A stretch of DNA of 64,000 bases from NCBI GenBank assembly GCA_002099625.1, contig GCA_002099625.1_4857.1. One strand, written 5' to 3'. Shown piece after piece: positions 42,047 through 64,000 of the stretch (position 1 is the first letter of the stretch; the number at the start of each line of letters is the position of its first letter). Both the position numbers and the translations under genes were made by a program. The DNA is from Escherichia coli. Its GTDB lineage: Bacteria; Pseudomonadota; Gammaproteobacteria; Enterobacterales; Enterobacteriaceae. The notes below the pieces were generated by a model. It was not told where the DNA came from and did no database searches. It was given only the letters and a program-made list of their open reading frames with translations.

Positions 42047-42574
42047 TTAAACGAATCCGTCCAGTTCACCGTTGGTGGTGCTCAGGTCAGTTTTAACGAC
42101 TGGCTGCGTTACAGTATAAACTGCAAGGCTGGCAGGCTGGTATTTAATGTGGCCTTCTTTCACCTTAACAGTGATGATTTTCTCACCACTGTCGCCGTCC
42201 TCGCGTGTAATGGTGAGTTCAGACAATGCAAACGCATCTTCCGTTTTACCGGCAGCAATTAGATCTGCGTTGACAAAAGCAAGCACTTCTTCATCGGTAT
42301 CCCATTCTGCCTGGTCAGCGGTCACTGCTTTCGCACCGATAATGTTCAATGAATTGAGGCGGGTATAATGCAGCTCTTTCTCGCCAGTAAAGTTAGCGGA
42401 TTCCGCGGTGGCAGTGATGGTGAGTTTGGAGTTGCGAGTGTCTCCAGAATCTGCTGGTGAATAGTCGGCAACAGCGCCGAATGTAACGTCAGCAGAAGTT
42501 AACGGACTAGACAGTCCGCTGTTTGCAGCATTAAACAGCGCAACGAGTTGGTCTTTTGCAGAGATGACTGCCAT
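42047..42574 (-). CDS. small member of the fibre-like paralog family (175 aa) with C-terminal NGELDGF motif
   Basis: N-terminus MAVISAKDQLVALFNAAN resembles family N-termini; ends TTNGELDGFV; AAGGAA RBS. Confidence 0.65.
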   Translation of the reverse strand: MAVISAKDQLVALFNAANSGLSSPLTSADVTFGAVADYSPADSGDTRNSKLTITATAESANFTGEKELHYTRLNSLNIIGAKAVTADQAEWDTDEEVLAFVNADLIAAGKTEDAFALSELTITREDGDSGEKIITVKVKEGHIKYQPASLAVYTVTQPVVKTDLSTTNGELDGFV

Positions 42575-42697
42575 GGTTGTTTCCTTATAGTAGGTTTGTG
42601 GTGCATACTAAATCATTCTAAAAAATACATAGTGGGCTTAATATGACAGTAAAGTTGGCTGTTAAACAAGAAATTTTTTACCACTGAAAGGTACTCT

Positions 42698-43189
42698 ATG
42701 AAACGTCTATTTATCGTATTCGCGATTATAAACCTGTTGGCCGGTTGTGTTCAGTCGCCAAGCAACATAGGACAATTTAGCGCCACACCAGTAAAGAATC
42801 ACGACTTGGTGATTTATACATGCACAGGGACGCAGGAGAAGTTTATAGACTACCGTCCGGTTCTGGACAATCTACAGATGATGCCGCGGTCAGTAACAGT
42901 AATGGATGTGGGTGCAAACTGGGTAGCAACGTGGGACGGTGGCAAACTTGAGTCACCGATGATGTTTAAAGATGTGGTTGGCAAAATCGACGGGAATGTT
43001 AACACCACCACGGGCGAGCGTTATTACCGTATTAATAAAACAGCAAACGATAGCCCAACTTATTCTTTTTCGGATGTGAACCCACATACCGGGGAAGGTA
43101 AAGGGATGACATTCTTTCGCTGCAGCGCCGGCTTTATCGACGAAGTTCCTACGCCGATTATGATTGTTCCGTTAGAAGAAAATAAATAA
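42698..43189 (+). CDS. lipoprotein (163 aa)
   Basis: MKRLFIVFAIINLLAGC lipobox LAGC; isolated plus-strand gene with own terminator. Confidence 0.65.
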   Translation: MKRLFIVFAIINLLAGCVQSPSNIGQFSATPVKNHDLVIYTCTGTQEKFIDYRPVLDNLQMMPRSVTVMDVGANWVATWDGGKLESPMMFKDVVGKIDGNVNTTTGERYYRINKTANDSPTYSFSDVNPHTGEGKGMTFFRCSAGFIDEVPTPIMIVPLEENK

Positions 43190-43234
43190 TGCTTACCCAC
43201 TCCCGTAAGGGGAGTGGGTATGGGCTTTATTTAC
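43186..43234 (+). terminator. rho-independent terminator (approx coords)
   Basis: Stem ACCCACTCCC/GGGAGTGGGT, loop GTAA, followed by GGGCTTTATTT. Confidence 0.6.
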
Positions 43235-43239
43235 CCTCT

Positions 43240-43285
43240 AAAACGCTCTGTAACGCTCTCTAAACGCATTAAACGTCTTGGATGA
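43240..43285. repeat. four tandem ~10-bp direct repeats, core AACGC (approx coords)
   Basis: CTAAAACGCTCTG / TAACGCTCTC / TAAACGCATT / AAACGTCTTG in convergent intergenic region. Confidence 0.3.
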
Positions 43286-43314
43286 TAAATGATATTACTT
43301 TTGATTAAAGTGGC

Positions 43315-43830: not shown

Positions 43831-43839
43831 TTTCTCTCC

Positions 43840-44697: not shown

Positions 44698-44773
44698 TAC
44701 GTTTTCTCCTTGCGGCAAAAACAAGGGCGCGCCAGATAGCTTTCATTAAGGCAGCAAACCAATTCTGTTTCAT
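44672..44773 (-). CDS. possible small basic/amphipathic peptide (33 aa; approx coords)
   Basis: ATG overlaps the lysozyme-gene stop (ATGA); MKQNWFAALMKAIWRALVFAARRKR. Confidence 0.2.
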   Translation of the reverse strand: MKQNWFAALMKAIWRALVFAARRKRNDPPSNSA

Positions 44774-45387: not shown

Positions 45388-45389
45388 AA

Positions 45390-45420
45390 AAAGAAAGCCT
45401 CTTCCCCACAGGGAAGAGGG
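45390..45420 (-). terminator. rho-independent terminator (approx coords)
   Basis: Stem CCTCTTCCC/GGGAAGAGG, loop CACA, T-rich tail on minus strand. Confidence 0.5.
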
Positions 45421-45465: not shown

Positions 45466-47643
45466 TTACGATAACGGTATCGTTGGCCGCACCCACGGTT
45501 TAGGGGCAGATTTGGTATACGGATTACATTCCATCATTTTACCGAGATACGCATCGTAATACACGAAGCGATCGACGTAGAACTTCTCCACCGGTGCACT
45601 ACTGGTAGCCGATTTCACCCGGTTGCGTTCCACAGCGAGGCTAATCGCCCCGGTAGGTGCGGGTTTTAGCGTGAACATTACCGCGCGGTTGTAACGCCAA
45701 GTGTCGTGCACAATATCAAACTCCGATACACAGTGTGCCATGATACCAAACAATGTGGTGGCTGGTAAGTTGGCTACAGCATCGCCGTATGGTGTTCCCA
45801 CCAAACCGCCGGGTATGTTTTGCTTTTTGAACAGCGTACCTGAAATAATCGTACCTAAGAACTCCACAACTACAGGTTTGGTTGGGTCGGTGACTTTATC
45901 TATCCCATCCGCACTGGCCAATCGGTTGGCATCTAAATCTGCGAGGTAGTCGAGGAACTCTTGGTACTCGTCGGTGACATTCGGTTTCACCGTTCCGACG
46001 GATACCCAGTTGACGATACTTTTATTCCCACCGACGGCTTCGCCTGCCATCCCAGGGCGAGTCCATGACATCCCGTCTTCACGACCGTAGACATAGACTG
46101 GCGAGCCGGTAGCCGGGGTGTTCCATTGCTCGAACGCTGTATATCGTCCCGGCTGGCCCCAATCCCCACCCGGACCGCCATAGTAGCGACTCTGGTAGCC
46201 GGTAAATTGTGCGACGACTAACTGGGTAGCACCGCCTTTGTCACGGGACCCAGCTAAGCCGTTACGGTTATTGGTGCCGCTGGGCACCGCCGCGCCTGGC
46301 CCGAGAGGCGCACCACCAGCTCCACCGATCTTGGTGGTGCTAAACGCATAGTAGTCGCCCCCACCCCCACCACCGGCGATGGTGCCGTAGTTTTCGATGG
46401 TGACTTTGCCGCGGAAGGTATCGGTAATGTGGATTGCGTCAGCTCCGTCTGCTGATGTGTTCGCAGGCAGAGAATAGACCATACCCGAACCACCACGACC
46501 AAGAATGGTTCCCCGGTTAACGAAGTTCCAAACCACCTCGCCAATTTGCGGCAATTCGTCGATAACGAACGTCGGTTTCAGGTTGCTGTCGCGATAAACG
46601 AAAGCCCCCGCATCTACGGTCACGTTAACAAACAAACGCCCGCACGCCGCATGGTTGGTCAACGTTGTGGCCCAGTAGCTGTCCGAAACTTGCGACGTGG
46701 TTGTGTAATTCAGGTTAAGGGTTTGCTCGTTATCTTGATAGCGTGCCACATTCAACGTGGCACTGCCCATGACTTTGTACGAACCCTCCACGGGTGCCAA
46801 TTGCACTTGTCTTGGCCACTCGCCTGTCAAGTTCTCTACAGGAGCAATTTCGTTTACATCAAAAACACTCCGAATGCCGAGTGTCTCGATGGCCAGAGCA
46901 TCGTGCAGGCTACCGGTGAAATCATCCGGGACGTATGTGGTTTTGCCTGCATATGTCTCGAGTTTGTTACGTGAAAAGAACACATACTTCGTCCCAAACA
47001 TCCCGCTCCCCGGTCTAGCGGTCAAAGCCACGACGCTGTTATACGCAGAGGTTTGGCCTATATCCTCCGGGGACATCGGGGCGCTGACATCGACTTTATC
47101 AAGATCCACGATCCGTTTGGCTGCATTAGAGTAGAAGTTAATCCACTGCTGTTTATTCGCAGCCTTTAGCGTGAGAATGATATTGGTAACAGTGTAGACG
47201 GTGTTGATATCCACGTCGCCGTTTATCACATCTAGCGTTTGGCTGCCGTACCAGACAAGACTTGTCTGTTTCGCCTGGAACGTGATGCGCGCAGCATTGT
47301 TTGTCCAAGTGATAGGCAGGTCTTCAAAGTCGTCGGTTAAAAAGGTAATCCCCAGTAAAGTGTCTAAATGCGGCAACAGTTCGTGAATGGATGCACAAGT
47401 GGGAATGGCATCCAACTTAACCTTAGCGAAATAATCAGCAATATTTTGCTTCGTGACTTGGGCCGTAATTTGACCGTAACTTGAATACCCCGGACCCCCT
47501 GTCAGTGTGACGTCTAGGGTTTTTTCGTCATGATGCTCCACGGACACCAGGCGAACGTTAGCGGGGTCTACTGCTTTGGCGACCGCGTTTTTACGGTTGA
47601 GCGACCGAATCACGGTCGCCACTAAATCAGGAGTGTAGGACAT
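45466..47643 (-). CDS. fibre-like paralog family member, long form with Gly-rich region (725 aa)
   Basis: AAGGTG RBS; family-type N-terminus; Gly-rich segment GGGGGGDYY...GGAGGAPLGPGAAVPSG. Confidence 0.75.
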   Translation of the reverse strand: MSYTPDLVATVIRSLNRKNAVAKAVDPANVRLVSVEHHDEKTLDVTLTGGPGYSSYGQITAQVTKQNIADYFAKVKLDAIPTCASIHELLPHLDTLLGITFLTDDFEDLPITWTNNAARITFQAKQTSLVWYGSQTLDVINGDVDINTVYTVTNIILTLKAANKQQWINFYSNAAKRIVDLDKVDVSAPMSPEDIGQTSAYNSVVALTARPGSGMFGTKYVFFSRNKLETYAGKTTYVPDDFTGSLHDALAIETLGIRSVFDVNEIAPVENLTGEWPRQVQLAPVEGSYKVMGSATLNVARYQDNEQTLNLNYTTTSQVSDSYWATTLTNHAACGRLFVNVTVDAGAFVYRDSNLKPTFVIDELPQIGEVVWNFVNRGTILGRGGSGMVYSLPANTSADGADAIHITDTFRGKVTIENYGTIAGGGGGGDYYAFSTTKIGGAGGAPLGPGAAVPSGTNNRNGLAGSRDKGGATQLVVAQFTGYQSRYYGGPGGDWGQPGRYTAFEQWNTPATGSPVYVYGREDGMSWTRPGMAGEAVGGNKSIVNWVSVGTVKPNVTDEYQEFLDYLADLDANRLASADGIDKVTDPTKPVVVEFLGTIISGTLFKKQNIPGGLVGTPYGDAVANLPATTLFGIMAHCVSEFDIVHDTWRYNRAVMFTLKPAPTGAISLAVERNRVKSATSSAPVEKFYVDRFVYYDAYLGKMMECNPYTKSAPKPWVRPTIPLS

Positions 47644-47657: not shown

Positions 47658-48977
47658 CTATAGCGGTGGATACCAAGGGACCGGGGCGGTTTTGCTATAT
47701 GGACTGTAGACCATATAGCCGCCTTTGCTTGGGTCGTAATAGATGAAATAGTTACAGTAATTCGAGTAAATACTCGTCATTTGTTTGGATTGGTATCCGT
47801 TACGGTATAGTCCCTGGTAAGTAATAGCTGATGTCGTGGTGGTGTAAGCAGTGTGGTACAGTACCCGACGCCGGTTAGCAATACTTTCTTGGAACATTTC
47901 TTCGGTCGGAAACGCGTGTTGCATCAGCCGTCGAATACTCCCGGTACAGTATCGAGTGCCATACGGGGAACCCGTTAAATCATCCGCTGTTTCAGGCGCT
48001 TCCGCCCGAGTCAACACGTACTCGTTTTGATACAACGTGACGCTCATCGAATTTGAGCTGGTTTCCCGGAACCTCATGTAACGCGCATAACGTTCGACGT
48101 CCTCTTCCTGCGCCAAATAGGCCACGTTATTTTTCGGACCAAAGTGCAAGAAGAACGGACGGCGGAGATTACCCATATCCTCAGGTGGCGTCAACTTCAC
48201 GCAGTAATTGTACTCCCCACGCATATCAGGGTCTAAGCCTGGGTTGTTATTGCGTGTAGCGACATACCCATAGAGGTCATACGGGTTATCAGTAGCAGCA
48301 TTACCGATAGTGAACGGGATGCCCGACCATGCCGACAGCGCCGCGATGAACTGGGTCATGTACGAGTTACTGTTTAGTCGCAGCGGGGTACCCATCGGGA
48401 TATTGATTATCTGTTGGGTGTACATGCTCCAGTCGAGTCGATAGACCGTGCTGTAAACATCCATGGGTTCCCAAGCTCCGGTTTCGGTGGTGTGGTACAA
48501 GTCGGCAAAGCTGGGCTCTTCACGAATAAAGCTAATTGGAATGTGACCCGTGAATGCGGGGTTATCCGATTTAATCGCCACCGTCCGATCGCCCGTTGCC
48601 ACAGTGATCATTGCAAACTGGCTGTCAGGATACGTTAAATCGTCAGCAGTAAGCACCAGCCCACAAGCTGCGGAAATCCGATCGATGATGTCGCGGTAGG
48701 ACGTCGCCCGATAAGGTACTTTAACCGGTACGCTGACGCCTTTAAAATACTGCGAAAGGTTTAAGCGGTCGTAGTAGATGTCCATCTTACCGCTGTAACC
48801 ACCACCCTGTAATCCGTTTACCACTATACGGCTGTTGCGGCCATCGCGCAAGGCATTGGTTAAAGGACCTTGTAATAACGCCACGTTGGTTGCGTTGAGT
48901 GGTTTCTTGAGCTGCGGGTTATCACGATTAATCTGATCCCAAACCAGCTGCATGACAGGTTTGTTATAGTTGATCAT
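47658..48977 (-). CDS. fibre-like paralog family member (439 aa)
   Basis: N-terminus MINYNKPVMQLVWDQINRDNPQL...GRNS...YYDRLNLSQYF carries the family NRDNP / YYDRLNL motifs. Confidence 0.75.
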   Translation of the reverse strand: MINYNKPVMQLVWDQINRDNPQLKKPLNATNVALLQGPLTNALRDGRNSRIVVNGLQGGGYSGKMDIYYDRLNLSQYFKGVSVPVKVPYRATSYRDIIDRISAACGLVLTADDLTYPDSQFAMITVATGDRTVAIKSDNPAFTGHIPISFIREEPSFADLYHTTETGAWEPMDVYSTVYRLDWSMYTQQIINIPMGTPLRLNSNSYMTQFIAALSAWSGIPFTIGNAATDNPYDLYGYVATRNNNPGLDPDMRGEYNYCVKLTPPEDMGNLRRPFFLHFGPKNNVAYLAQEEDVERYARYMRFRETSSNSMSVTLYQNEYVLTRAEAPETADDLTGSPYGTRYCTGSIRRLMQHAFPTEEMFQESIANRRRVLYHTAYTTTTSAITYQGLYRNGYQSKQMTSIYSNYCNYFIYYDPSKGGYMVYSPYSKTAPVPWYPPL

Positions 48978-49155: not shown

Positions 49156-50058
49156 TTAGCTAAGAACCAGTTCGATAACGTGGACTACCGACGCGCTATT
49201 GGTCGAAGAGGTGTACGATGGTAAGTCTGGTGAGCCGCTGCGATAATACCACGGGCTGGCGTTGTCATAACCGTTGGCAAACAATGTTGCGGTTGACTCG
49301 GTTGGACTACTGCCGGAGCGCGTCGGTAAGTCGCCAAAACGTCTTACGATGCCCGCGTACCGGAACAAGCTTGCGAACGTGTTGTGCCACTCGCCGTCTT
49401 GAAAATAACCACCGCTGCTTAGGTAGGTGCTGTGCCCATAACTGTAGTCTCCGAGTCGAGGCAAACGTACCACATACTCGTAACCGTCTTTATTAAATGT
49501 CCGACGCTGGTTAGTGGTAGTGACGCTCCGCGGCGGGAAACCGTAGTCATCTGTTCCCCAGGCCAGACCTTGCTGGTATTGTTCGTTCCACGTCGTCCCT
49601 AAACGGGTCACCGTGTCAGGAATGAACAGAATGCGTCCTTTGAAAACGAATTTATGGAACAATGTTGGAGCTTGGTTCCAGGCATTAAAGCCAATTAAAC
49701 CATTCAGCTCGGCATGGTTAAGAATAAATTCTTCGTTTGTCAGTGTGCCAAAGTAGCCACGATGCCAGTCGCCACGAATAAGTTCCTGTGGGCCGGGTCC
49801 TGTCATTGGAAAGTCGCCCTGTACAATCGGCAGCCCCATAACCTTTTCAGTGCCCTTTACCGCCACGATGCGATATTGATACGTTTTATACGCTTCGGTG
49901 GTCTTGTCCTCGTACGTCGTTGTGTTACCTGGTAGTGTTACAATAGGTTCCCCCGGTGCTACTGGGTTAACATTTTGTCTGGGGTTGTCGTAACGATAGA
50001 TTTCAATGGAATCCAAAGTCTGACCTGGCTGTTGTTTCCAGTTTAAGATAATCGACAT
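49156..50058 (-). CDS. module gene A1: fibre-like protein with FN3-like N-terminus (300 aa)
   Basis: GGAG RBS; motif FPMTGPGPQELIRGDWHRGYFGT shared with A2/A3 and the C genes. Confidence 0.75.
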   Translation of the reverse strand: MSIILNWKQQPGQTLDSIEIYRYDNPRQNVNPVAPGEPIVTLPGNTTTYEDKTTEAYKTYQYRIVAVKGTEKVMGLPIVQGDFPMTGPGPQELIRGDWHRGYFGTLTNEEFILNHAELNGLIGFNAWNQAPTLFHKFVFKGRILFIPDTVTRLGTTWNEQYQQGLAWGTDDYGFPPRSVTTTNQRRTFNKDGYEYVVRLPRLGDYSYGHSTYLSSGGYFQDGEWHNTFASLFRYAGIVRRFGDLPTRSGSSPTESTATLFANGYDNASPWYYRSGSPDLPSYTSSTNSASVVHVIELVLS

Positions 50059-50061: not shown

Positions 50062-51060
50062 TTACTCCACTAACTCGATAACGAATGCGTACAAACCGAC
50101 CTTCTCAGCACTGTCAATTAACGTAACTTGGGAGAGGTTACGTTTCGACGTATTGGTTATACTTGAATCGATAGGCGCAGACCCACGAACCAGAACTAAT
50201 CCCGATTCAGGATCACGTTCCTGGCACAAGAAACCTTTGCCTTGGTAAGCGCCACCGCTCCCATAAATGGACGCTGGACTAATATTAGTCCAGTTAGGGA
50301 GCATTTGTTTGTTAGGGATGCAATCAGCGAACGGATAAACAAAGTCGTTATATTCGCAGCGACCATATTCCAAGTCATCATGGTCTGCGTTTCGTAACGA
50401 TTCATCCAACGTCATTACTGTCGGTTCGTCCCCGTCGGTTAAACCGCGCAGCAATCGCATCCGATAGGTGTCGCCTTGCCATTCAAACAACCCACTCTGG
50501 TCAACACCTGCCAGATCCCCACGTCCGTTATCAGGACCAAATCCGTCTACGCCGTATACAAGACCCGCGTTATAAATGTCATTCCACGAGTAAAGTGTAG
50601 AGTTAAATCGTCCGCCGTTGTACATCATGTAGTAAACTTTACCATGACGATAAAACTTGTTCATGATTAGCGTGCCCGTGCCCGATATCCCTGTTAATGC
50701 ACGAAAGCCTGCAGGCAACGCGTCATAGGTCATCTGTTCTTCGAACGGCAACTGCCCCAGAAACGCCAAGTCGTCAGTATCGGAATAGTTAATCTGGTCG
50801 ACGCCACCCACACCACGACGGTTTTTAATGACAATGGATTTTTGTGGACTACCTACGGTACGACCGTTAACAGTTACTGTTAAAAGATACCAGTAACGGG
50901 TGTTAAGAATAACGGTTTCGTCCGTCCATTCCGTTTCGCCATTACTTAAAGTTGCAATAGGGGCTGGTAATGCGGCTGTATTTATTTTAGCCGTGCCCCG
51001 ATAAATGTTAACAATTGAACCTGCCGGATTTTCATTTTTCCAGCGTAGTGTGAAAGCCAT
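50062..51060 (-). CDS. module gene B1: fibre-like protein (332 aa)
   Basis: AAGGAG RBS; N-terminus MAFTLRWKNENPAGSIVNIYRGT paralogous to B2/B3. Confidence 0.75.
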   Translation of the reverse strand: MAFTLRWKNENPAGSIVNIYRGTAKINTAALPAPIATLSNGETEWTDETVILNTRYWYLLTVTVNGRTVGSPQKSIVIKNRRGVGGVDQINYSDTDDLAFLGQLPFEEQMTYDALPAGFRALTGISGTGTLIMNKFYRHGKVYYMMYNGGRFNSTLYSWNDIYNAGLVYGVDGFGPDNGRGDLAGVDQSGLFEWQGDTYRMRLLRGLTDGDEPTVMTLDESLRNADHDDLEYGRCEYNDFVYPFADCIPNKQMLPNWTNISPASIYGSGGAYQGKGFLCQERDPESGLVLVRGSAPIDSSITNTSKRNLSQVTLIDSAEKVGLYAFVIELVE

Positions 51061-53426: not shown

Positions 53427-54416
53427 TTAATCCTCGATAAGCTCGATTACTGGAATCCAAATACCGCCCACGGTCGCACCAGGGACATGTTGTATACGCT
53501 GGAGGTTATCCACGGTATCAGTGGAATCCGCCGCCGCCCATCCGCGCGTCAGCCCCAACTTACTGTCTGGGTCAAACTCCTGACAATGCGCCCCACGGCC
53601 TGCCACCAGCGATCCGTTTCCGAATATGCTGGAGTTCGACCACTTTATCAGGGACATCACTTTTTTCTTTTCTGGGAACCAGCTACTTATCCCATAGATG
53701 AGTCGGTTGTATTCGCTATCGGCAGTATACGGTGACGCGTCATGGAGTTTACCGTTCCACTGTGCGTCGAGTGTCATGACCGGGCTTTCACTGTCGAGCG
53801 TTAACCCGCGCAGCAGGCGCATCCGATAGCGGTCACCCAACCACGTAAACTCCCCAGCCTGGTCAACGTCAGGTAAATCACCATGACCGCCTTCCGGACC
53901 AGGTCCCGCCACACCGTACAGCAAACCCGCGTTATAAATCGCATCACGGCTATACAGCGTGTTGCCGTTCACACGAAGACCACTAAACAGATACAGAATT
54001 TTACCGTCTAGCTGGAACTTCATCAAGCCCGGCTTAACAGTTGGGTCGTATCCAGAAAGGGCCACAAACCCTGGCGGATAATCACCCGCGCTAGGTAATT
54101 CACCGTACGCCACGTACCCGTAATACGCAAAGCGGTCATCACCGTACAGTGGAGCCACGATGCCGATACCGCGACGGTTCTGAATCAGAATTGATTTCTG
54201 CGGACTGAACAGTGTCCGACTTCCCACTGTCACGGTGGTCATGTAGTAATACGTTGTCCCCAGTATCGCTGTTCGGTCAGTATACTCAGTTTCCCCGTTA
54301 GTGAACGTTGCCAGGGGTTCAGGTAATGCCGTACGCACCAGAGGTTTGGTGTCGCGGTACAGCTTCACGGTCGAAGCCCCAGGGTTATTGTTCGTCCAAC
54401 GAATTGTAAAAGCCAT
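53427..54416 (-). CDS. module gene B2 (329 aa)
   Basis: Paralog of B1/B3 (MAFTIRWTNNNPGASTVKLYRDT). Confidence 0.75.
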   Translation of the reverse strand: MAFTIRWTNNNPGASTVKLYRDTKPLVRTALPEPLATFTNGETEYTDRTAILGTTYYYMTTVTVGSRTLFSPQKSILIQNRRGIGIVAPLYGDDRFAYYGYVAYGELPSAGDYPPGFVALSGYDPTVKPGLMKFQLDGKILYLFSGLRVNGNTLYSRDAIYNAGLLYGVAGPGPEGGHGDLPDVDQAGEFTWLGDRYRMRLLRGLTLDSESPVMTLDAQWNGKLHDASPYTADSEYNRLIYGISSWFPEKKKVMSLIKWSNSSIFGNGSLVAGRGAHCQEFDPDSKLGLTRGWAAADSTDTVDNLQRIQHVPGATVGGIWIPVIELIED

Positions 54417-55938: not shown

Positions 55939-56862
55939 TTACGGTAAGACTAATTCGAAAGCAAAGAAAATTGTTACAGCAACACCCACTCCTGATGAGT
56001 TGGTAATCCCCGCCGGGGCATAACCGTACGCATAAGCGAAAAGGTTGCTGTTCCATAAAGGAGCTAGCACGGCTGCACCTGTTTCGTTAGGCTGGGCAGT
56101 TGAACCTTGCGGCGGTATTGAATCGATGGCACCAAGACCAATAGGCGGGAACTGTGCACCGACAGGATACAAACGGCCCATTGTGTTTCGCCATTCGCCG
56201 TTGTTGTAATCCTGTCCTGAGAGAGCCGCGTCGTACGGGACTGCGTAAGGTAATCGGATACGGTACGTACGACCATCCTTCGTGACCTTACAATCTTGTT
56301 TAGTCGCCGTGGCTCCCTGCGGGACTATGATCCCGTTATCATCGGTCCCGTACATCATCCCGTACTGATACGCCATCTGTACCGAGTTGGTTTTCGAATG
56401 CATCGTCGCTGGGAAGAAGACAATTCTCCCACGGAAAATAAACTTGTGCCATTCCTGAGGGTCGTAGGTAAACATGTTTCCCTGCTGCGCAGTTAACATG
56501 AGTTTTAACTCGGCAGTATTAAAGAACTCTGTATTCGGTACTGTACCGAAATAACCTGAAGCCCAGTCACCTCGCAAAATAGTTTGCGGTCCCGGTCCAG
56601 TGTCTGGATAGAACCCTTGCGTAATCGGATTGCCGATAAGTCGTTCACTGTCTTTTACAGCAGCTACCCAATAACGATAAGTTGTATTCTTCGTCAGAGT
56701 ATCAATATCGTCTACGAACTCTACCGCGTTGCCTGATAAAGTTGCGTGGGGCGTGCCTGGATTGTAAACGTCGATTGTTGCGTTCCAACCTTCCTTGCGG
56801 TAGATTTCAATCGCGGTAAGACCTTTGCTGGCTTGGGACGGCCAGCTTAACCGTATAGTCAT
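55939..56862 (-). CDS. module gene A3 (307 aa)
   Basis: AAGGGG RBS; YPDTGPGPQTILRGDWASGYFGT. Confidence 0.75.
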   Translation of the reverse strand: MTIRLSWPSQASKGLTAIEIYRKEGWNATIDVYNPGTPHATLSGNAVEFVDDIDTLTKNTTYRYWVAAVKDSERLIGNPITQGFYPDTGPGPQTILRGDWASGYFGTVPNTEFFNTAELKLMLTAQQGNMFTYDPQEWHKFIFRGRIVFFPATMHSKTNSVQMAYQYGMMYGTDDNGIIVPQGATATKQDCKVTKDGRTYRIRLPYAVPYDAALSGQDYNNGEWRNTMGRLYPVGAQFPPIGLGAIDSIPPQGSTAQPNETGAAVLAPLWNSNLFAYAYGYAPAGITNSSGVGVAVTIFFAFELVLP

Positions 56863-56871: not shown

Positions 56872-57870
56872 TTACTCGACCAGTTCAAAGATAGGGTAGT
56901 AACGCCCTTTCGTGGTGGGTGATAAATAGTTTATACGCTGAATCGCTGATACGGGTGTTCCACCGGCATTGTTAAAGATACCACGATGGAGCACACGGTC
57001 TTCCGCGGTGTCGTGTTCCATACAGAGAACTCCGGCACCGAAATACGTTGCCGAGGTTCCCAAATTAGCCTGTCCCAGATAAGTATAACCGATTGTTGCC
57101 CAGTTAGCCCAACGTTGTTTCTTCGGCACCTCGTTAACCATCGTGTAAAGTAAATCGTTATACTCGCACGGGTTGGTTAGAGAAGCGATTTCATCGTGGG
57201 TTTTCCCATTGTAGTCAGCCACGAAAGGATACGCAGGAGACTCGCTAGACGTCGTCAGGCCGCGAGGAAGACGCATAATGTACGTATCCCCTTTGTGGAC
57301 TATCTTAGCGTCTTGTGGAGTGGCCGGTAGCGTTCCATGGCCGTTCTCTGGGCCAGCATCGCCTGTACCATAGACTAAACCAGCTTGATAGAGGGAAGCC
57401 CAGTCCACAGGCGTATTCGGGAACTGCGACGTATTAGATAGCATGTAATAGATCTTCCCGTTTCGGGTAAATTTATACAACGCCACACGATCGGTTAATA
57501 GATTAGGGAACATCGCCAAAAATGCAGGTGGCATTTGCGACGGAAGCCATTGTTCGTCGTAAGGAACCGCACCCATAAACCCTAAACGGTCGTTACCGTT
57601 TAGAATAGTCATTGGGCCAATCCCACGCTTTATCTCAATGGTGTATTTCTGGCTAGACGATGCCACTGTTTTACCGTTGGCGGTTACCGTCAGAAGGTAA
57701 TAATAGGTTGCGCCTGGTGCGGCGGTGGTATCACGCCATTCTGTCTCGCCATTTGAGAGCGTTGCAATCGGTTCAGGCAAAGCGCTCGGTGTGATATCTT
57801 TAACGTCACGGTAGATTTTTACTACCGTAGAGATTACGTTTGGATTTTTCCAACGCAAAGTAAAAGACAT
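56872..57870 (-). CDS. module gene B3 (332 aa)
   Basis: Paralog of B1/B2 (MSFTLRWKNPNVISTVVKIYRDV). Confidence 0.75.
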   Translation of the reverse strand: MSFTLRWKNPNVISTVVKIYRDVKDITPSALPEPIATLSNGETEWRDTTAAPGATYYYLLTVTANGKTVASSSQKYTIEIKRGIGPMTILNGNDRLGFMGAVPYDEQWLPSQMPPAFLAMFPNLLTDRVALYKFTRNGKIYYMLSNTSQFPNTPVDWASLYQAGLVYGTGDAGPENGHGTLPATPQDAKIVHKGDTYIMRLPRGLTTSSESPAYPFVADYNGKTHDEIASLTNPCEYNDLLYTMVNEVPKKQRWANWATIGYTYLGQANLGTSATYFGAGVLCMEHDTAEDRVLHRGIFNNAGGTPVSAIQRINYLSPTTKGRYYPIFELVE

Positions 57871-57881: not shown

Positions 57882-59294
57882 CTACTTAAAGCCGTTCAGT
57901 TCACCGTTAAGAGACGTTAACGATGTCTTGTCGGGTGGCGTATACATTTCAGCGGTAGCCGCAATGGGTTGGAAGTCGACTGTCTTCGGCAGCATTAAAG
58001 CAGGCGGATGCAGTGCGAAACTGTTTTCTGAAGTAACAACTACCGGTTCGAAATCGGTAGTATCTGGATTACCGAGCACCAACGGCTTGAGACTAAACGT
58101 GTTTTCTGCGGACACGCTGCACGGTTGGAGACTGTAATCTACCGCACCATGGATATCTTCTAAACCCAAGGTAACTGTGGACTTATCCACCAACTCTAGC
58201 ACCGGGAACCAGTAGTAGTTGCCTGCGCTCGATGATTTTCCTAAGTTTGTCCAACTGGCTCCAGACAACGTCGCCATGCGATGATTGGCGACGTTGGTGT
58301 TCAGTGTATCTTTCAATAAACAGAACAGCGTCCAGTAACTGTTAATCGGTTTGTCCCACGTTCCATTATACAGAAAGTTGAACATCTCAAACTCACTACC
58401 TGCTAACTCAGCGGCAGTTGGGGTGCCGCTGACGTATGGGTCTTTCCCGGCACTAGGTAGACGAACACGGAAGTAAAACCTTTTGTTGTCTGCGCCTGTA
58501 AAGCTAATGATGCGTCCCTGGTTAACGGGCGTCGCCGCAGGGTATTTACCATTATCGTCTGTTCCGTAAACGAGTCCGTTTGTATATAACGTATTCCAGG
58601 AGATGGAGCTAGCGACAGGACTAATCGGGAGGTAAATAACCCTACCCTGGTAAAAGAACTTGTACCAACCTTCGGCACCAGAATGTACCGGTGGTAACGC
58701 ACCGGCCGATATAGTGGCATTAAGAAGTTGAGAGTGTGTAAACAACTCTGCAATTGTGGTTGTTCCGAAATAACCCGCGATAGTGTTACCTTGCAGCAAC
58801 GTTTTAGGGCCAGGTCCAGAATCGGGGTAAATTGCACCACTCGGGACGGTATAACGTATCGTTAAGCTGCCTGTAAACGCAGGGCAATTACCTGAGATAT
58901 TTAATTTCAACGTCTGCGGCGAAGCGCTCGGTTTAGGTAAACTTGCGTCAGGTGACTGCAAATCAGAAGCAACTAATGTAAGCCCCAATGCGTCGTTTAT
59001 TGCAGGTAGCGCGTCTCGTACCGTTAAGACTGTATCTTTGATAGCCACAGTCGGCACAAAATTAAATAAAGTGGCCAGGTTAATCCGGTCGTAGTACACG
59101 GTAACATTACCTTGTACACCTGTCCCTGGATACCCGGTGAAAACAGCTTTGGTGTTACGTTGGTTTAACGTAACTGAAGTTGGGCCGCTGGTTAAAGCAG
59201 CGATAGCCGGCGTCAGCTTAACAACTAAATCAGGATTATCCCGATTGACTTGGTCGTATACAAGCAGTGCCGACTCCTTCGAGTAAAATAGCAT
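57882..59294 (-). CDS. module gene C3 with C-terminal NGELNGF (470 aa)
   Basis: CGGAG RBS; N-terminus ...VYDQVNRDNPDL...YYDRINLATLF. Confidence 0.75.
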   Translation of the reverse strand: MLFYSKESALLVYDQVNRDNPDLVVKLTPAIAALTSGPTSVTLNQRNTKAVFTGYPGTGVQGNVTVYYDRINLATLFNFVPTVAIKDTVLTVRDALPAINDALGLTLVASDLQSPDASLPKPSASPQTLKLNISGNCPAFTGSLTIRYTVPSGAIYPDSGPGPKTLLQGNTIAGYFGTTTIAELFTHSQLLNATISAGALPPVHSGAEGWYKFFYQGRVIYLPISPVASSISWNTLYTNGLVYGTDDNGKYPAATPVNQGRIISFTGADNKRFYFRVRLPSAGKDPYVSGTPTAAELAGSEFEMFNFLYNGTWDKPINSYWTLFCLLKDTLNTNVANHRMATLSGASWTNLGKSSSAGNYYWFPVLELVDKSTVTLGLEDIHGAVDYSLQPCSVSAENTFSLKPLVLGNPDTTDFEPVVVTSENSFALHPPALMLPKTVDFQPIAATAEMYTPPDKTSLTSLNGELNGFK

Positions 59295-59341: not shown

Positions 59342-60169
59342 TTAGCTGTTATAGTGGTAGTACGCCACGCCTTTCACGCCTTCCTCATCGATACCCGTTT
59401 GGATAACCACGCGGTCGTACGATTTGTTAGCGAACTGTGCGGTGGAAGTCGGCACATCCTGAACGGTGTTACTGTTCAGTGGCCCCGCGTAGTTCGGAAT
59501 ACCCAGGTCATCCAACACCTTACGCAAACCAGCCCACTGCGGTAGGCCAGAAGCATCTACTGTCAGTAGGTTTTTATACGCGGTAAAGTCAATACCGTAC
59601 GTCAACAAATCAATACACTTCTTACCGAGAGACGGTGAAATAGGCTCTTGAATCGCATTCAAGACATCTGATTTCACCGAAGTGTCTAGTACCGGTAAAC
59701 CACGGTTATAACGCAACGTCGCAGAACCGATATAAGCCGGAGATGTCGATAGCGCTGCAATGGTCTGTGTATTGGTGTAATTTGGGGTATTGGCACCCGC
59801 CAGTGAGTAGTTTTGGATATCGATTGCGGAGAAGTTTACTCCGTAGGTATCCAAGAGCACCGAAAAGGCTGAGTGGAGGTTGGGAGCGTCAAACGTGACG
59901 AACTGCGCCTGGACGGAAGGACCCCACGGCAATAACCGCGCTAAGTTCACACGGTCGTAGTAAACGGTGATTGCGTCTCGAAATCCGGAACCCTGAATAC
60001 CGCGCAAGCGTGCCGACGTATTGCGGTTGTTGGAAGCTGCATTAACGGGAACCTGTGTCACTTTCTCCACGTAGCAGTTTGCCGGCGACGCTTTAATAGG
60101 TAGGTTTGGGTTATCCCGGTTAATGAGGTCAAAGACCAACTCGTTTGACGGCTTAGCATAGTTGATCAT
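59342..60169 (-). CDS. fibre-like paralog family, short form (275 aa from Met2)
   Basis: GAGGT RBS; N-terminus MINYAKPSNELVFDLINRDNPNL...YYDRVNLARLL; C-terminus ...YYHYNS. Confidence 0.75.
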   Translation of the reverse strand: MINYAKPSNELVFDLINRDNPNLPIKASPANCYVEKVTQVPVNAASNNRNTSARLRGIQGSGFRDAITVYYDRVNLARLLPWGPSVQAQFVTFDAPNLHSAFSVLLDTYGVNFSAIDIQNYSLAGANTPNYTNTQTIAALSTSPAYIGSATLRYNRGLPVLDTSVKSDVLNAIQEPISPSLGKKCIDLLTYGIDFTAYKNLLTVDASGLPQWAGLRKVLDDLGIPNYAGPLNSNTVQDVPTSTAQFANKSYDRVVIQTGIDEEGVKGVAYYHYNS

Positions 60170-60172: not shown

Positions 60173-61060
60173 TTATACCTCGCTTGGATCGTCCAGATCG
60201 TTGAACTGGAGATACAACGTTCCGACGATGGTGGTACAAGTAACAGGCAGTTTCAACACCAGCGCATACTTGTACTTCGCGTTTGTCGGCATTGCAACAG
60301 GGTCATTCAAACCAACGCTGACAACCTCCGCGCCCGCCAAACCGTAGGAAGCGGAGGTGGTCGCTACCCATGCAGTACCCGTGATATCTTTCAGCAGGTT
60401 AACCATATCCGTTAACGGCTGTCCGGACAGAATACCCGGCACGTATGCCAGCAACTCATCACGGTATTTGGTGAAGTTGTACGGGTAGGAATAAACCTCT
60501 GCAATGACCGCAGTAACGGTTTCGGAACCCATCTGACCGTTCGGGTATTTCAGACCGGTCAGGACGTTAGTGGTGACTGCAGAGACTAACGACTCATCGC
60601 CTTTCACGACTTTAAATGTCGCCTGTCCAACCCAACCGATAGACTCAGGATGTGCAACAACACGCACAGTTCCTTCGGTCTTATCACCGTTCCATTCGAT
60701 ATCTGCGTCCTGCAGGTCAGCTTCTTCCAGAACAAAACCGTAACGTTGGTTCAGTCCAGGAATGGCCGCATACAAGGTTTCGTTGGATGGGCCGATCGCC
60801 AACGTGTCACCAATCAGCACTAACAAGTCTTCGATTTTCATGCGGTTGTAGAAGACATTTTTCTTACCCGACCAGGTAGAGCCCGTTACCCCATCTGCCG
60901 TAATTTTAATTTGCGTGTTACGGTTAGTCAGCGTTTCCTTCTCCGTACCACGGATGTCCTTTGGCGAGGACCAGATGATGTCAGTCATCTTAACAGCAAG
61001 CGAGTTCTGTGCGTTCACTGCTGCCAACAGGACGTCTTTAGAAGGTTGATAAATAGCCAT
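60173..61060 (-). CDS. fibre-like paralog family, short form (295 aa)
   Basis: AGGAA RBS; family N-terminus MAIYQPSKDVLLAAVNAQN; C-terminus ...LYLQFNDL. Confidence 0.75.
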   Translation of the reverse strand: MAIYQPSKDVLLAAVNAQNSLAVKMTDIIWSSPKDIRGTEKETLTNRNTQIKITADGVTGSTWSGKKNVFYNRMKIEDLLVLIGDTLAIGPSNETLYAAIPGLNQRYGFVLEEADLQDADIEWNGDKTEGTVRVVAHPESIGWVGQATFKVVKGDESLVSAVTTNVLTGLKYPNGQMGSETVTAVIAEVYSYPYNFTKYRDELLAYVPGILSGQPLTDMVNLLKDITGTAWVATTSASYGLAGAEVVSVGLNDPVAMPTNAKYKYALVLKLPVTCTTIVGTLYLQFNDLDDPSEV

Positions 61061-61070: not shown

Positions 61071-61910
61071 CTAGTTGTTGTAGTGCAACATACACTCGCC
61101 GATTACTTTCGGGTCGTTCTGAATGCCGGTAATCAGCAATACGTTATCGTACGCTTTATTGGCGGTCGCCAACTCACTCGTTTTGTAGCGGGTAATTGTG
61201 CAGTTCGTCGGATCAAACGACGGTACCCCACGTGCGACCAATGTGGCCATCAGATTGGACGTGTAACCCAAATCAAAGTTACTTCCTACGTCCATTCGTC
61301 CGTTCTTAAACGAGGCCATAACCTGCACTTCATCAGTAAAGTCTTCCCCGTACGTCAAGAAGCCCATGTATTTCTTACCAGTGCTTGCTGCTGCAGGGTG
61401 GTTCAAAGCCGACAAGATGTCGTTTACCACGAGGTCTTCGAGACTATTCTTACCCCGGATAGACATAAAGGTGATGCTGCCAGTGTATTGGATACAGCTA
61501 GCGTTAATACGCATCGTGTTGTTTACGTTCAGATAAACGTATTGTTCTGGGATATCGTCTGCAACCAGGTTTAATCCATAACGACCGTTCAGGTTCTGCG
61601 CAAACGCAGTACGTTTCGACTCCACGTTCAACCAACCGTAGGCATTCGGTGCAGTTACCTGAGGTGTCATGTTCTTAAATAAGTCGTTCAGCGACAAGCG
61701 CTTATAACGGAACGTCTGAGGACCGATATAGCCACGACCTTGACGACCACGAATGATAATCTCAGTATTGGCACCGCTTGCTGTCGGTGTGATTGCTTTC
61801 GGCGTACCGATGATAGCATTGTCTAAACCCATCGGTAGAACAGCATCCGGGTTTTCGGCATTAATCGCATCGTACAGATATTGTCGCTGAGACAGACTAT
61901 ATAAAGCCAT
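61071..61910 (-). CDS. fibre-like paralog family, short form (279 aa from Met7)
   Basis: GAGGAGG RBS 6 nt before internal ATG; C-terminus ...CMLHYNN. Confidence 0.75.
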   Translation of the reverse strand: MALYSLSQRQYLYDAINAENPDAVLPMGLDNAIIGTPKAITPTASGANTEIIIRGRQGRGYIGPQTFRYKRLSLNDLFKNMTPQVTAPNAYGWLNVESKRTAFAQNLNGRYGLNLVADDIPEQYVYLNVNNTMRINASCIQYTGSITFMSIRGKNSLEDLVVNDILSALNHPAAASTGKKYMGFLTYGEDFTDEVQVMASFKNGRMDVGSNFDLGYTSNLMATLVARGVPSFDPTNCTITRYKTSELATANKAYDNVLLITGIQNDPKVIGECMLHYNN

Positions 61911-61979
61911 AATAGCCTCCTCGGCCAAAAAAGAAAGGAGTAGCCAGGAGGAGGATTTCCTCCTCCCAGCGAGGCCTAA

Positions 61980-62891
61980 TTAGGCATTAAAGTGCAGGTA
62001 CATGACGCCCTGGAAGTTGGTGCACAGAGTGTCATCCAGCTGCAGCAGCAGAACCTGGTTGTAAGCAGTGTTTGCACCTTCAACCGGTTTCTTAGGATCG
62101 TCGCCTGAAGCGGTGCCGTCGTCAGCAGTAGAACCAACGTACAACACGTTAGCACCTTTCAGGTTATAATCCGCAGGCTCATCAGATGCAACCCACAGTT
62201 CCGGCACAACTTTATTCAGCTCAACCGGGAATGCAGAGTCGCCAGCGATAACACCTTTCGTCTGTACTTTCAGGAATGCTGCGATTGCTGTGCAGTCTAC
62301 ACCGTAAGAGTAGATGTAACCCTGACCCTTCGCTTCGCTTGCACCATCTGGGTAAACCAGGCCGTCGAGCTTGGTTTGTGTTACCACCAGATTCAGACGT
62401 TCACCAACTTGAGGCTTAGCACCGATTTTAACCGGGATGCTGCCCAGATAAGCATAGCAGTCTTCTTTGAAGGTAATGACGTGGTCAACCGGTGCTGGGT
62501 CCGGATCGTTCGGGTTAGTCAGCGGCGGGTTGGTATTTTCCGGAATAGCCGCCGGAACGATATCGTCTTCGGTCAGCTTCAATCCGTATTGGGTGTTCAG
62601 GGTCGTCAGCAGGTCGGTGGTGGTTTTCGGCAGTTTAACGTCGAGGTATGCTGTTACATTACGGAACAGCGCACTGCCTTCCAGGCGATTATAAGTCACG
62701 TCCTGAGTACCGATGTACCCGGAGTTCTTTTTCGCAGTCAGGGTCATGCTGGTATTGCGATCGGCACCTCCATCGACAATAGGGGTCGGTGTGCCGAGCG
62801 TTATTTTAGAAAGTTCCAGTTCTGCGTCTGGGTTTTTCTCATTAATAAAATCCAGAACCAGCTGATCGGACGTTTTGTTTAAAGGTTTCAT
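61980..62891 (-). CDS. fibre-like paralog family, short form (303 aa)
   Basis: AAGGAAG RBS; C-terminus ...VMYLHFNA. Confidence 0.75.
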   Translation of the reverse strand: MKPLNKTSDQLVLDFINEKNPDAELELSKITLGTPTPIVDGGADRNTSMTLTAKKNSGYIGTQDVTYNRLEGSALFRNVTAYLDVKLPKTTTDLLTTLNTQYGLKLTEDDIVPAAIPENTNPPLTNPNDPDPAPVDHVITFKEDCYAYLGSIPVKIGAKPQVGERLNLVVTQTKLDGLVYPDGASEAKGQGYIYSYGVDCTAIAAFLKVQTKGVIAGDSAFPVELNKVVPELWVASDEPADYNLKGANVLYVGSTADDGTASGDDPKKPVEGANTAYNQVLLLQLDDTLCTNFQGVMYLHFNA

Positions 62892-62912
62892 TCTTACTTC
62901 CTTTACTCAGGA

Positions 62913-63758
62913 TTAATCAGGGTCGTTGTAGTGCAAATACAAACGCCCGCCAAAATTCAGACAGTACAACGACAGCTCCACAATCAGCACGTTGTCGACT
63001 GCTGGGTTGGTTGGTAATTCCGCTTTGTTACGCCCGTTATAGACGACGACAGCTTCACGAAGGTTAAAGTCGATTGGGTTACGGTACGTTGTCCAGTTAT
63101 CACCGGTGACCGTTTTGAGAATCTGCGCCAGACGTTCTGCGGTTATCGCAGCACCTAGTCGTTGAAATTCCTCCGCGAAATTATCAAAGCGCCAGGGATA
63201 CGAATAAACTGCACCTTGACCGACCTTGATGTTGAAATACGGATACTCGTAAGGTGTCACTGTTAAGGGTTCGAAGTTTGCAGGAAGCAACGCATCGCCT
63301 GGTAACAGCTGTACCTGTTGTTGCCCTATCCAACCTAAAGAAGTGGGCGTGGCAATCAGATCCACACGCCATGTCTTCCTGTCGATTTCGGTATTCACCA
63401 CATCTGCGGGTTTAAGGCTGAGACCGTAATACTGGTTAATTAACCCGACCACGTCATGCATCTGGTAAACAGCGTCGAGACGTGCAGGAACACGTAGAGG
63501 TTGAATCCCGTCTGGGTCGGTAAACATGTCTGCGAAGTCAACACGATCGTAATACACGGTAGTGGCACCGATAGCATTAGCGGTGGCCAAAGCCTGAATG
63601 CGCACCATCGCGTTATGACCATTGGCTTTTGCCAGGTCTTCGTCAGACGTCGGTATCGCAGGGACACCGAAAACCACATCTTCGACTTTTAAATCGAGAT
63701 TGTTTTCGACGTTAACCTCCGCGATAATAATCTTTTCAGCAGTGGCTAAAAGTGGCAT
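62913..63758 (-). CDS. fibre-like paralog family, short form (281 aa)
   Basis: AAGGA RBS; ...TTVYYDRVDFADMF; C-terminus ...RLYLHYNDPD. Confidence 0.75.
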   Translation of the reverse strand: MPLLATAEKIIIAEVNVENNLDLKVEDVVFGVPAIPTSDEDLAKANGHNAMVRIQALATANAIGATTVYYDRVDFADMFTDPDGIQPLRVPARLDAVYQMHDVVGLINQYYGLSLKPADVVNTEIDRKTWRVDLIATPTSLGWIGQQQVQLLPGDALLPANFEPLTVTPYEYPYFNIKVGQGAVYSYPWRFDNFAEEFQRLGAAITAERLAQILKTVTGDNWTTYRNPIDFNLREAVVVYNGRNKAELPTNPAVDNVLIVELSLYCLNFGGRLYLHYNDPD

Positions 63759-63768
63759 GTCAAAATCC

Positions 63769-64000
63769 TTATATCGGGAGATAGTGAAGGATGAGATTAC
63801 CGGCGTAGTTGCTGTCCGCAGCTAGCTTGATAATCGCCACACGCTGATAATCGGGGTTGTAACTATCGTTCGGTGTGACTGAAGTTATCCCCATATATCG
63901 TGCACCTTGAAGCGCAATTTGTTCAGGTTGCGCAGTCGCCCCCGTCACATATGCAAACTTTAATGGCACCACTTCGTTAAGCAATTCAACATCCGCCGCG
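63769..64000 (-). CDS. partial CDS: 3' end of a further short-form paralog (start beyond window end)
   Basis: Stop at 63769; C-terminal residues ...AGNLILHYLPI match the family L-H-Y-N-type C-terminus; open to window edge. Confidence 0.6.
   Translation of the reverse strand, partial: AADVELLNEVVPLKFAYVTGATAQPEQIALQGARYMGITSVTPNDSYNPDYQRVAIIKLAADSNYAGNLILHYLPI

Follow-up and report, generated by a model that had tools for sequence, protein, structure and literature searches.

Contig GCA_002099625.1_4857.1 of the Escherichia coli assembly GCA_002099625.1 holds, within the stretch of 64,000 nucleotides analysed here (the window), a run of genes from position 42,047 to the end of the stretch whose products begin with a similar N-terminal domain (N-domain), and the question raised by this locus is what that domain is and what so many copies of it do. 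A preliminary description, made from the letters of the window, had counted at least twelve copies of an unrecognised domain of about 80 residues and had likened their carriers to receptor-binding proteins anchored through an adaptor. The region encodes the DUF7941 family of chimalliviruses in the expanded form of SPN3US-type phages, already in print as ‘paralog family B’, and the N-domain is probably a linking module that strings these proteins into sticky filaments for finding host cells. The family, its expansion in SPN3US-type phage, the virion data, the Pfam model and the filament and host-recognition model are already known; the literatures that hold them (paralog family B, 2016-2023; Pfam DUF7941; phage Goslar, 2026) had not previously been joined, and the link between them is new here.

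Family identity and domain architecture

The region from 42000 to 64000 is matched by 21 complete jumbo-phage genomes, each covering at least 80% of its length, and its DNA is 97-98% identical to that of Salmonella phage SPN3US and relatives (genus Seoulvirus, family Chimalliviridae). Relative to the SPN3US record the window is reverse-complemented. The proteins of the region share 91.5-99.6% identity with their SPN3US orthologues, in collinear order and on the same strand, and their sizes and order agree with the published SPN3US numbering, which is used below. The cluster corresponds to gp139-gp155 plus gp160 and is orthologous to paralog family B (gp138-154 and gp160); gp154 down to gp140 run consecutively after gp155 on the minus strand, and the window ends inside gp139 (Table 1).

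All 11 complete genes named in the preliminary description exceed the gathering cut-off of Pfam PF25613 (DUF7941; 27 bits), with scores of 42-295 bits and E-values of 9.7e-11 to 7.6e-88. A hidden Markov model (HMM) of their N-termini, run against all six-frame open reading frames (ORFs) of the window, retrieves exactly those 11 ORFs (E 3e-33 to 5e-60) and none besides, gp160 matching at E 2.7e-33 across almost the entire protein, and all-against-all BLASTP connects the members chiefly via residues 1-150. Eleven of the twelve proposed copies are borne out, while the twelfth shows only its C-terminal 76 amino acids (aa) in the window; its SPN3US orthologue, gp139, bears the N-domain. The motifs N-x-x-N-P, R-N-T, G-x-G and Y-Y-D-R-x-N-L that had been picked out are real alignment columns, with N20 invariant and N47, G62, Y68 and R70 at least 90% conserved. 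The domain is, at about 150 aa, longer than the 80 first given (Pfam profile positions 1-153/170; AlphaFold2 predicted local distance difference test, pLDDT, near 90 to residue 150-160).

Nor is the domain unrecognised. It is DUF7941, and the set was published for SPN3US as paralog family B (PMC5105663, PMC5694885), enlarged with gp83, gp160 and gp237 (PMC5694885) and described as possibly the largest paralog family of any single phage genome. The genes are the same as those studied here, so the published data apply directly (PMC5105663, PMC5694885, PMC10052503). The published family, built by PSI-BLAST, merges the N-domain proteins with six proteins that lack the N-domain and omits gp155, which has two; no fold, polymer model or link to DUF7941 is proposed in those papers.

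The short forms (gp139-144) end L-H-Y/F-N, as had been proposed, and PF25613 covers all six over profile positions 1-276, against the first 100-170 positions in the long forms, gp154, gp155 and gp160. Phage phiKZ gp127 likewise ends LLIHYN, and the short-form profile aligns with full-length gp127 to that terminus (L-L-I-H-Y-N; E 3.4e-23). The AlphaFold2 model of gp141 (mean pLDDT 84.5) comprises a confident N-domain (residues 1-160), a low-confidence linker (165-200) that includes TKLDGLVYP and a confident C-domain (200-303), the layout of Goslar gp22; its predicted template modelling score (pTM) of 0.52 indicates that the N-domain and C-domain have no fixed mutual orientation. A Foldseek search of this model against PDB returns a single significant match, 9xqd_0, the phiKZ gp127 N-domain (E 8.9e-6), and the N-domain thus has the fold of phiKZ gp127 residues 1-150 (PDB 9XQD). 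The possibility that the short-form C-domain is a diverged copy of the N-domain was rejected, second HMM matches in gp144 and gp142 reaching independent E-values (iE) of about 20. The division of the family into short and long forms does not accommodate gp160 (175 aa), which consists of an N-domain and a 14-aa tail motif and belongs to neither class.

According to AlphaFold2, the long forms gp145, gp148 and gp151 comprise the N-domain, a 220-residue M domain (pLDDT near 90) and a 90-residue tail (pLDDT below 50; 33-46 in gp145). The tails end K-T-x-L-x-x-x-N-G-E-L-D/N-G-F, and in long-form orthologues down to about 30% identity K-T-x-L-S-x-x-N-G-E-L-x-G-F is kept at the extreme C-terminus while the remaining tail varies; the terminal motif is missing from five Erwinia-phage long-form orthologues. 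This ...NGELDGF motif, with which both gp160 and the long forms end, probably acts as a docking peptide. The long-form tails also carry short proline-rich repeats (e.g. ...PKTVDFxP..., ...RPL..., ...SPRPLL...) in a pattern conserved across orthologues, and the P-K-T-V-D-F-x-P repeats may be candidate binding sites for the interleaved partner proteins described next.

Six genes interleaved with the long forms (starting at 49156, 50062, 52525, 53427, 55939 and 56872) were missed in the preliminary description. Their products lack the N-domain and have the M domain in common with the long forms (BLASTP), and a profile of their six N-termini matches PDB 3mpc_A (‘Fn3-like protein’, E 8e-5) and, weakly, Pfam fn3 (E 0.005). 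Nine proteins of the cluster probably bear a C-type-lectin-like (M) domain, six of these behind an FN3 domain. The M domain was compared with phage and bacterial ligand binders of the C-type-lectin fold, namely Bordetella phage Mtd, the variable proteins TvpA/TaqVP of diversity-generating retroelements and the Bdellovibrio Bd2740 fibre tip; it has no sequence similarity to them, and the part of the model that aligned is our deduction. Together the interleaved genes and the long forms make up the centre of the region as three tandem triplets that repeat every 3.4 kb or so, each consisting of a long form, a 330-aa protein and a 300-aa protein, and protein abundances within each triplet agree to about 2.6-fold.

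A diversity-generating retroelement or a recent duplication was considered for this arrangement and rejected: DNA repeats in 42-64 kb are only paralogue segments 60-79% identical, with no template/variable pair and no other mark of such an element. Among close relatives gp147 is the most variable gene (about 91% identity). Escherichia phage vB_EcoM_Lh1B lacks the whole gp151-153 triplet (locus L003, 8680-13490), and Salmonella phage SPLA5c has lost gp151 and gp150; all that remains of its gp152-type gene is the N-terminal half and of its gp149-type gene the C-terminal half, the two being annotated as separate ORFs (locus L004, 10010-13708). Both losses look like unequal recombination between paralogous triplets, and they imply that these phages can do without individual members, which is what one would expect of accessory adhesins. 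Several records of the Salmonella phages SPFM1-SPFM20 (P0025-P0029, P0034, P0084-P0096) contain shortened or chimeric copies of these genes, which reach high bit scores at a BLASTP query coverage of only 4-13%; this suggests frameshift errors of assembly rather than biology.

The longest member, gp155, had been listed with one N-domain and has two in tandem (second domain, iE 4.2e-6), followed by an adhesin domain and a C-terminal domain. Residues 373-553 match Pfam GP38 (PF05268) at 66.2 bits (cut-off 25; E 4.8e-18; profile positions 61-214 of 218), and this region holds the glycine-rich runs typical of the Gp38 adhesin. The protein also matches phrog_2056 (‘tail fiber protein; host specificity’) and phrog_6409 and, weakly, the gp38 chains 6f45_D and 9v85_A in PDB (E about 0.004). 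It has no tail motif, which makes it a candidate distal cap for a chain. In gp154, DUF7941 covers residues 1-169 on profile positions 1-170 of 276, that is, the N-domain only; phrog_1037 extends over residues 1-287 and phrog_6409 over 308-436, and BLASTP connects the protein to the gp155 C-terminus (E 2.6e-7). A conserved N-terminal module with variable C-termini therefore describes gp155 well and the three long forms plausibly; it does not describe the short forms, in which conservation of the C-domain extends to phiKZ. The FN3 plus probable lectin-like architecture, the triplets, the terminal donor-like motif and gp155 as a Gp38-bearing member of the family are new elements, each an incremental one.

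Chain assembly and place on the particle

Two studies of 2026 bear on function. By cryo-EM, the phiKZ atlas finds a single gp127 in each star lobe, at the end of the phiKZ gp139 band on the outer peripheral baseplate (PMC13250141). The Goslar preprint describes DUF7941 as a chimallivirus-specific family with ten Goslar proteins (gp23 at about 2140 copies, gp22 at about 580), shows that purified gp22 forms filaments in vitro with no phage scaffold, and presents AlphaFold3 models in which each subunit's N-domain receives the linker and C-domain of its neighbour (bioRxiv 10.64898/2026.04.21.720040). The published evidence thus points to head-to-tail polymerisation instead of the docking on an adaptor first proposed. 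The Goslar authors suggest a baseplate-grown ‘fibre cloud’ for host recognition, explicitly as speculation, the cloud not having been observed on virions; SPN3US is not mentioned in the preprint and the baseplate anchor is assumed (bioRxiv 10.64898/2026.04.21.720040). The general reading of the domain as an attachment module is partly supported, by the fold and sequence of phiKZ gp127 at the baseplate (PMC13250141), by Gp38 in gp155 and by the probable lectin-like domain of the long forms, and we regard the N-domain as a probable particle-attachment or self-association module.

Relatives elsewhere show the domain built into covalent arrays. Its profile finds 3075 cluster representatives at E <=1e-3 (1354 at E <=1e-10) among 1.84 billion proteins, metagenomic sequences that carry no taxonomy. 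When the 150 best-scoring were searched with the N-domain HMM, 142 were re-detected, and 54 of these hold 2-13 tandem N-domains. In P0156 (1166 aa), P0206 (1496 aa), P0153 (1778 aa) and P0099-P0104, 3-13 N-domains per polypeptide are joined by a ...L-x-G-F-x-Y... connector. Such tandem-domain polypeptides are the covalent counterpart of the non-covalent chains proposed below. The pattern L-x-G-[FLIMY] follows 45 of 211 N-domains in relatives, compared with 6% of background windows, and lies +5 to +14 residues past the domain in 39 of the 45; it forms the cis connector between domains in the covalent arrays and also ends N-domain-only proteins. In large relatives the N-domain is found fused to modules of the Gp38 (two cases), Ig, SPRY, BNR and arabinofuranosidase-like types. 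Homologues of gp141 are found by tblastn in 129 phage records; the 40 matches listed are all phages of 197-307 kb, nearly all above 200 kb, with Erwinia, Salmonella, Serratia, Klebsiella and others as hosts. The named phages among the best 50 fold matches to viral models (BFVD) are all phiKZ-like, and these matches, the tblastn phages listed and the Seoulvirus placement agree in restricting DUF7941 to Chimalliviridae.

On balance we lean towards reading the family as components of head-to-tail filaments outside the particle, which capture host cells and are associated with the head or neck. In this mechanism the N-domain of about 150 aa would be an acceptor module and the connector T-x-L-D/N-G-F/L after it a donor peptide, which, together with the C-domain in short forms, would dock on the N-domain of the next subunit. 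Donor-acceptor docking of this kind would give thin, flexible, mixed head-to-tail polymers. The bulk links would be the short forms gp139-144 together with gp160. Between acceptor and donor the long forms would carry the probable lectin-like domain; a donor placed after that domain and a disordered tail would make them in-chain binding subunits, with the binding domain hanging off the chain. With two acceptors, a Gp38 adhesin and no donor, gp155 would be the distal cap, a polarity that matches phiKZ, where the gp127 N-domain is proximal. The six FN3 plus lectin-like proteins may join by some further contact, and the filaments would increase host-cell capture. We infer the equivalence of the long-form tail motif and the short-form linker from their position, their pattern and the common ends of their PHROG profiles.

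The cluster proteins are late, uncleaved particle proteins, and the non-structural role that had been named as a possible refutation is not what is seen: mass spectrometry finds all SPN3US members in virions, gp141 and gp160 among the most abundant. In the SPN3US proteomics gp160 is assigned to the head with 1750 peptide-spectrum matches and is among the two most abundant family members in virions; gp141 is the most abundant full-length member and gp143 the third most abundant of the family. In tailless particles from a tail-tube amber mutant, purified over two gradients, gp138-gp155 and gp160 (19 proteins) are retained at 0.89-1.67 of the wild-type level after normalisation, whereas gp167-171 fall to 0.004-0.013 in the same samples (PMC10052503, Table S2). 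These ratios come from triplicates purified by step and buoyant-density CsCl gradients, and the head retention is assumed to hold for the near-identical phage of the window. These figures speak against an anchor on the large fibre proteins gp168-170. The two literatures thus disagree: the structural papers speak of a baseplate fibre cloud, and the SPN3US proteomics has every cluster member at full level on tailless heads.

The proposal that filaments grow from six outer-baseplate sites, as for Goslar, and that the head signal reflects entanglement or sticking to capsids during lysis and purification, is the alternative that survives best, and we consider it unlikely. It draws on the phiKZ gp127 N-domain modelled at the outer peripheral baseplate, where a gp126-gp127 dimer fits unexplained density, on the gene cluster adjoining the baseplate and fibre genes gp167-171, on the self-assembly of Goslar gp22 without a phage scaffold and on two N-domain proteins, gp237 and gp122, that are tail-specific by mass spectrometry. 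It must contend with the head/wild-type ratios of all 19 proteins, which recur in a second independent mutant while baseplate proteins are all but absent from those samples; free filaments, moreover, should not band with DNA-filled heads unless firmly bound. The two tail-specific proteins are encoded outside the window (gp237, L006 7365-7916, E 5e-19; gp122, L005 45820-46353, E 1e-17) and both are minor and tail-bound, gp237 having a head/wild-type ratio of 0.06 and gp122 being detected in wild type only. The gp237 gene lies beside the tape-measure region and the gp122 gene beside tail genes. A third outlying protein, gp83 (L005 22919-23446), is encoded beside the portal gene, is head-associated and has a partial N-domain with an A-L-D-G-F motif. 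From gene position and proteomics one may speculate that gp83 is a head-side anchor or initiator and gp237 and gp122 tail-side ones. A candidate identification of gp237 as the closest relative of phiKZ gp127 was unsupported, phmmer against PDB giving no match.

Full recovery in tailless heads and the high copy of gp141 and gp160 would also suit proteins enclosed in the capsid, whether inner-body-like or for ejection, as in a tentative SPN3US annotation, and internal protein in SPN3US heads exceeds 40 MDa (PMC7411985). We think this quite improbable. The prohead protease cleaves no family member and none has its cleavage motif, whereas eight other head proteins, among them the plentiful ejection proteins gp53/gp54, do undergo processing. 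The cluster proteins also carry surface-type domains (Gp38 adhesin, FN3, probable lectin-like fold), relatives have glycosidase-like and Ig modules attached to the N-domain, and a homologue stands outside the particle on the phiKZ baseplate. Prohead or early-particle data on the family were sought in the 2020 assembly paper, which makes no mention of it (PMC7411985).

To our knowledge, FN3 domains are surface-exposed wherever they are located on phage particles. The Gp38 adhesin, the FN3 domains, the probably lectin-like M domain and the lack of prohead protease processing speak for an external location. We favour external filaments that in this phage would be held chiefly at the head or neck, where the bulk of the family would be tied, and not at the baseplate, with minor gp237 and gp122 bound to the tail. 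Spectral counts give 250-535 copies of gp160 per virion, 180-390 of gp141 and about 830-1790 of all N-domain proteins, crude values from a calibration that overestimates the portal 3-5-fold; some 800-1800 N-domain subunits would be too many for a few fixed sites. Independent receptor-binding proteins docked one by one through the N-domain on an adaptor or on gp168-170 are very improbable, since the conserved N-module with differing C-terminal parts, the Gp38 adhesin of gp155 and the adjacency to the gp168-170 genes are outweighed by a C-terminal half conserved in 7 of 12 members (short forms including the partial gene), by persistence on particles without gp168-170, by estimated copy numbers in the hundreds and by covalent tandem arrays and in-vitro filaments that point to polymerisation.

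Several observations weigh against the external filament reading. Filament clouds have not been observed on any virion. The authors of the SPN3US proteomics, who found the family at full level in CsCl-purified tailless heads of two different mutants, took its members as head, possibly ejection, proteins (‘Head ejection?’). In the AlphaFold2 monomer models of gp145 and gp141 the tail motif is neither docked nor folded back on the N-domain, and hhalign of the tail motif with the short-form linker gives a probability of 0.7% over one aligned column, the profiles being too short to inform. The idea that the cluster switches host range between Salmonella and E. coli within the genus is unsupported, the proteins being 91-100% identical save for one triplet loss.

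A more specific proposal, which we put forward tentatively and with considerable doubt, is that the DUF7941 proteins form a non-covalent combinatorial polymer of about a thousand subunits on the capsid or neck and not on the baseplate, with NGELDGF inserting lectin-bearing subunits and donor-less gp155-type proteins as caps. If true, these phages would carry on the head an organelle for host capture of a type so far undescribed in phages, and the ‘universal baseplate anchor’ of 2026 would be overturned. Settling the location would tell how the largest known phage paralogue family, at about a thousand subunits per particle, serves nucleus-forming jumbo phages, which are candidates for therapy. 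The amber-mutant genetics of SPN3US suit the question, and the domain map gives experimenters points of entry: the putative Gp38-bearing cap, the lectin-like subunits proposed to sit in the chain, their FN3 partners and the candidate docking motif at the C-terminus.

Gene layout and neighbouring genes

Table 1. Genes of the cluster and its surroundings, named after SPN3US, with the positions of their parts, PF25613 scores and basis of assignment
Position	Strand	Product	PF25613	Basis
22141-35276	+	gp170, gp169, gp168 counterparts: paralogous genes of 1237, 1376, 1742 aa
38518-41965	+	Adjacent radical-SAM proteins gp163, gp162, then two small ORFs (one DUF4376)
42047..42574	-	gp160-type, 175 aa: DUF7941 N-domain, then tail motif TDLSTTNGELDGFV (42050-42091)	42 bits (E 9.7e-11)	97.7% identity to SPN3US gp160
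42698-43189	+	Small ORF with lipoprotein-type signal MKRLFIVFAIINLLAGC
43315-43830	-	M15-like peptidase/endolysin
43840-44481	-	DUF1353 protein		PHROGs label ‘tail assembly chaperone’
44770-45423	-	GH108 + PG_binding_3 endolysin
45466..47643	-	gp155-type, 725 aa: N-domain 1 (47191-47643), N-domain 2 (46729-47118), Gp38-type adhesin (45985-46527), C-terminal domain (45469-45975)	83.5 bits	Pfam, PHROG, PDB matches
47658..48977	-	gp154-type, 439 aa: short-form-like DUF7941 region, C-terminal domain common with gp155	94 bits (E 1.5e-26)	Pfam, PHROG, BLASTP
49156..50058	-	gp153-type, 300 aa: FN3-like + M domain, no DUF7941; triplet 1		BLASTP, FN3 profile
50062..51060	-	gp152-type, 332 aa: FN3-like + M domain, second subtype; triplet 1
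51071..52513	-	gp151-type long form, 480 aa: N-domain, M domain, disordered repeat tail (51074-51400), C-terminal KTDLATANGELNGF (51074-51115); triplet 1	79 bits (E 6.3e-22)
52525..53424	-	gp150-type, 299 aa: FN3-like + M domain; triplet 2
53427..54416	-	gp149-type, 329 aa: FN3-like + M domain; triplet 2
54429..55925	-	gp148-type long form, 498 aa: repeat tail (54432-54700), C-terminal KITLGDTNGELDGFQ (54432-54476); triplet 2	105 bits (E 5.9e-30)
55939..56862	-	gp147-type, 307 aa: FN3-like + M domain; triplet 3
56872..57870	-	gp146-type, 332 aa: FN3-like + M domain; triplet 3
57882..59294	-	gp145-type long form, 470 aa: N-domain (58845-59294), M domain (58167-58832), disordered repeat tail (57885-58157), C-terminal KTSLTSLNGELNGFK (57885-57929); triplet 3	111 bits	AlphaFold2
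59342..60169	-	gp144-type short form, 275 aa: N-domain, linker, C-domain	295 bits (E 7.6e-88, profile positions 1-276)
60173..61060	-	gp143-type short form, 295 aa	277 bits (E 2e-82)
61071..61910	-	gp142-type short form, 279 aa, N-terminus MALYSL	270 bits (E 3.2e-80)
61980..62891	-	gp141-type short form, 303 aa: N-domain (62412-62891), linker (62292-62399), C-domain (61983-62291)	283 bits	AlphaFold2
62913..63758	-	gp140-type short form, 281 aa	268 bits (E 1.5e-79)
63769..64000	-	gp139-type short form, C-terminal 76 aa only (...NLILHYLPI); N-terminus beyond window end		Near-identical to SPN3US gp139 C-terminus

The start codon of gp150 is the ATG at 53424 and not the TTG upstream, in agreement with a published N-terminal peptide (Met removed, next residue P). 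The genes gp168-170 form ‘paralog family C’ and encode phiKZ gp131-like baseplate/fibre proteins, which are tail-specific by published mass spectrometry, unlike the adjoining DUF7941 cluster. Between these tail-fibre genes and the cluster lies the gp163/gp162 region, whose products are non-virion by published mass spectrometry. Three genes, for the GH108 endolysin, the DUF1353 protein and the M15-like peptidase, stand immediately downstream of gp155; the DUF1353 protein could be a candidate chaperone for the gp155 adhesin. A comparable pairing occurs in phiKZ, where gp143 (DUF7941) adjoins gp144, a transglycosylase belonging to the neck whisker ring.

Comparison with known systems

The Gp38-type domain of gp155 resembles the T4-type adhesin (PF05268; Salmonella phage S16 gp38, PDB 6F45) in its profile match and glycine-rich runs. 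In T4-like phages Gp38 caps the long tail fibre gp37 as a separate small protein, whereas in gp155 it is internal to a chain of 725 aa, with two DUF7941 domains ahead of it and a further C-terminal domain after it; and gp155 is found with tailless heads.

Branched receptor-binding systems (G7C, CBA120, phiKp24/RaK2-type) also have many paralogues that share an N-terminal attachment module and display differing binding domains. There, trimeric tailspikes occupy fixed sites on a branched adaptor, whereas the SPN3US-type module appears to polymerise linearly. Most members here lack an enzyme or spike, unlike those systems, and the family-library searches run named no tailspike family for the cluster proteins.

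The nearest counterparts are within Chimalliviridae. In phiKZ, gp127 (PDB 9XQD chain 0) and gp126 are homologous to the short forms over the full length, down to the terminal L-I-H-Y-N; the family there numbers about three proteins, a single gp127 being modelled in each star lobe, whereas the SPN3US type is expanded, abundant and in the head fraction. The Goslar baseplate anchor is not supported by the SPN3US proteomics. Goslar has 10 members, with CBM, GH and LRR as add-on domains, against at least 16 N-domain proteins and 6 M-domain-only relatives in the SPN3US type, where the additions are the Gp38 adhesin and FN3/lectin-like domains. The layout of Goslar gp22 is that of gp141 (N-domain, flexible linker, C-domain) and the layout of Goslar gp23 that of gp160 (N-domain and linker only), and in both phage types the gp22/gp141- and gp23/gp160-type proteins are the most abundant members, accompanied by some members with extra binding domains.

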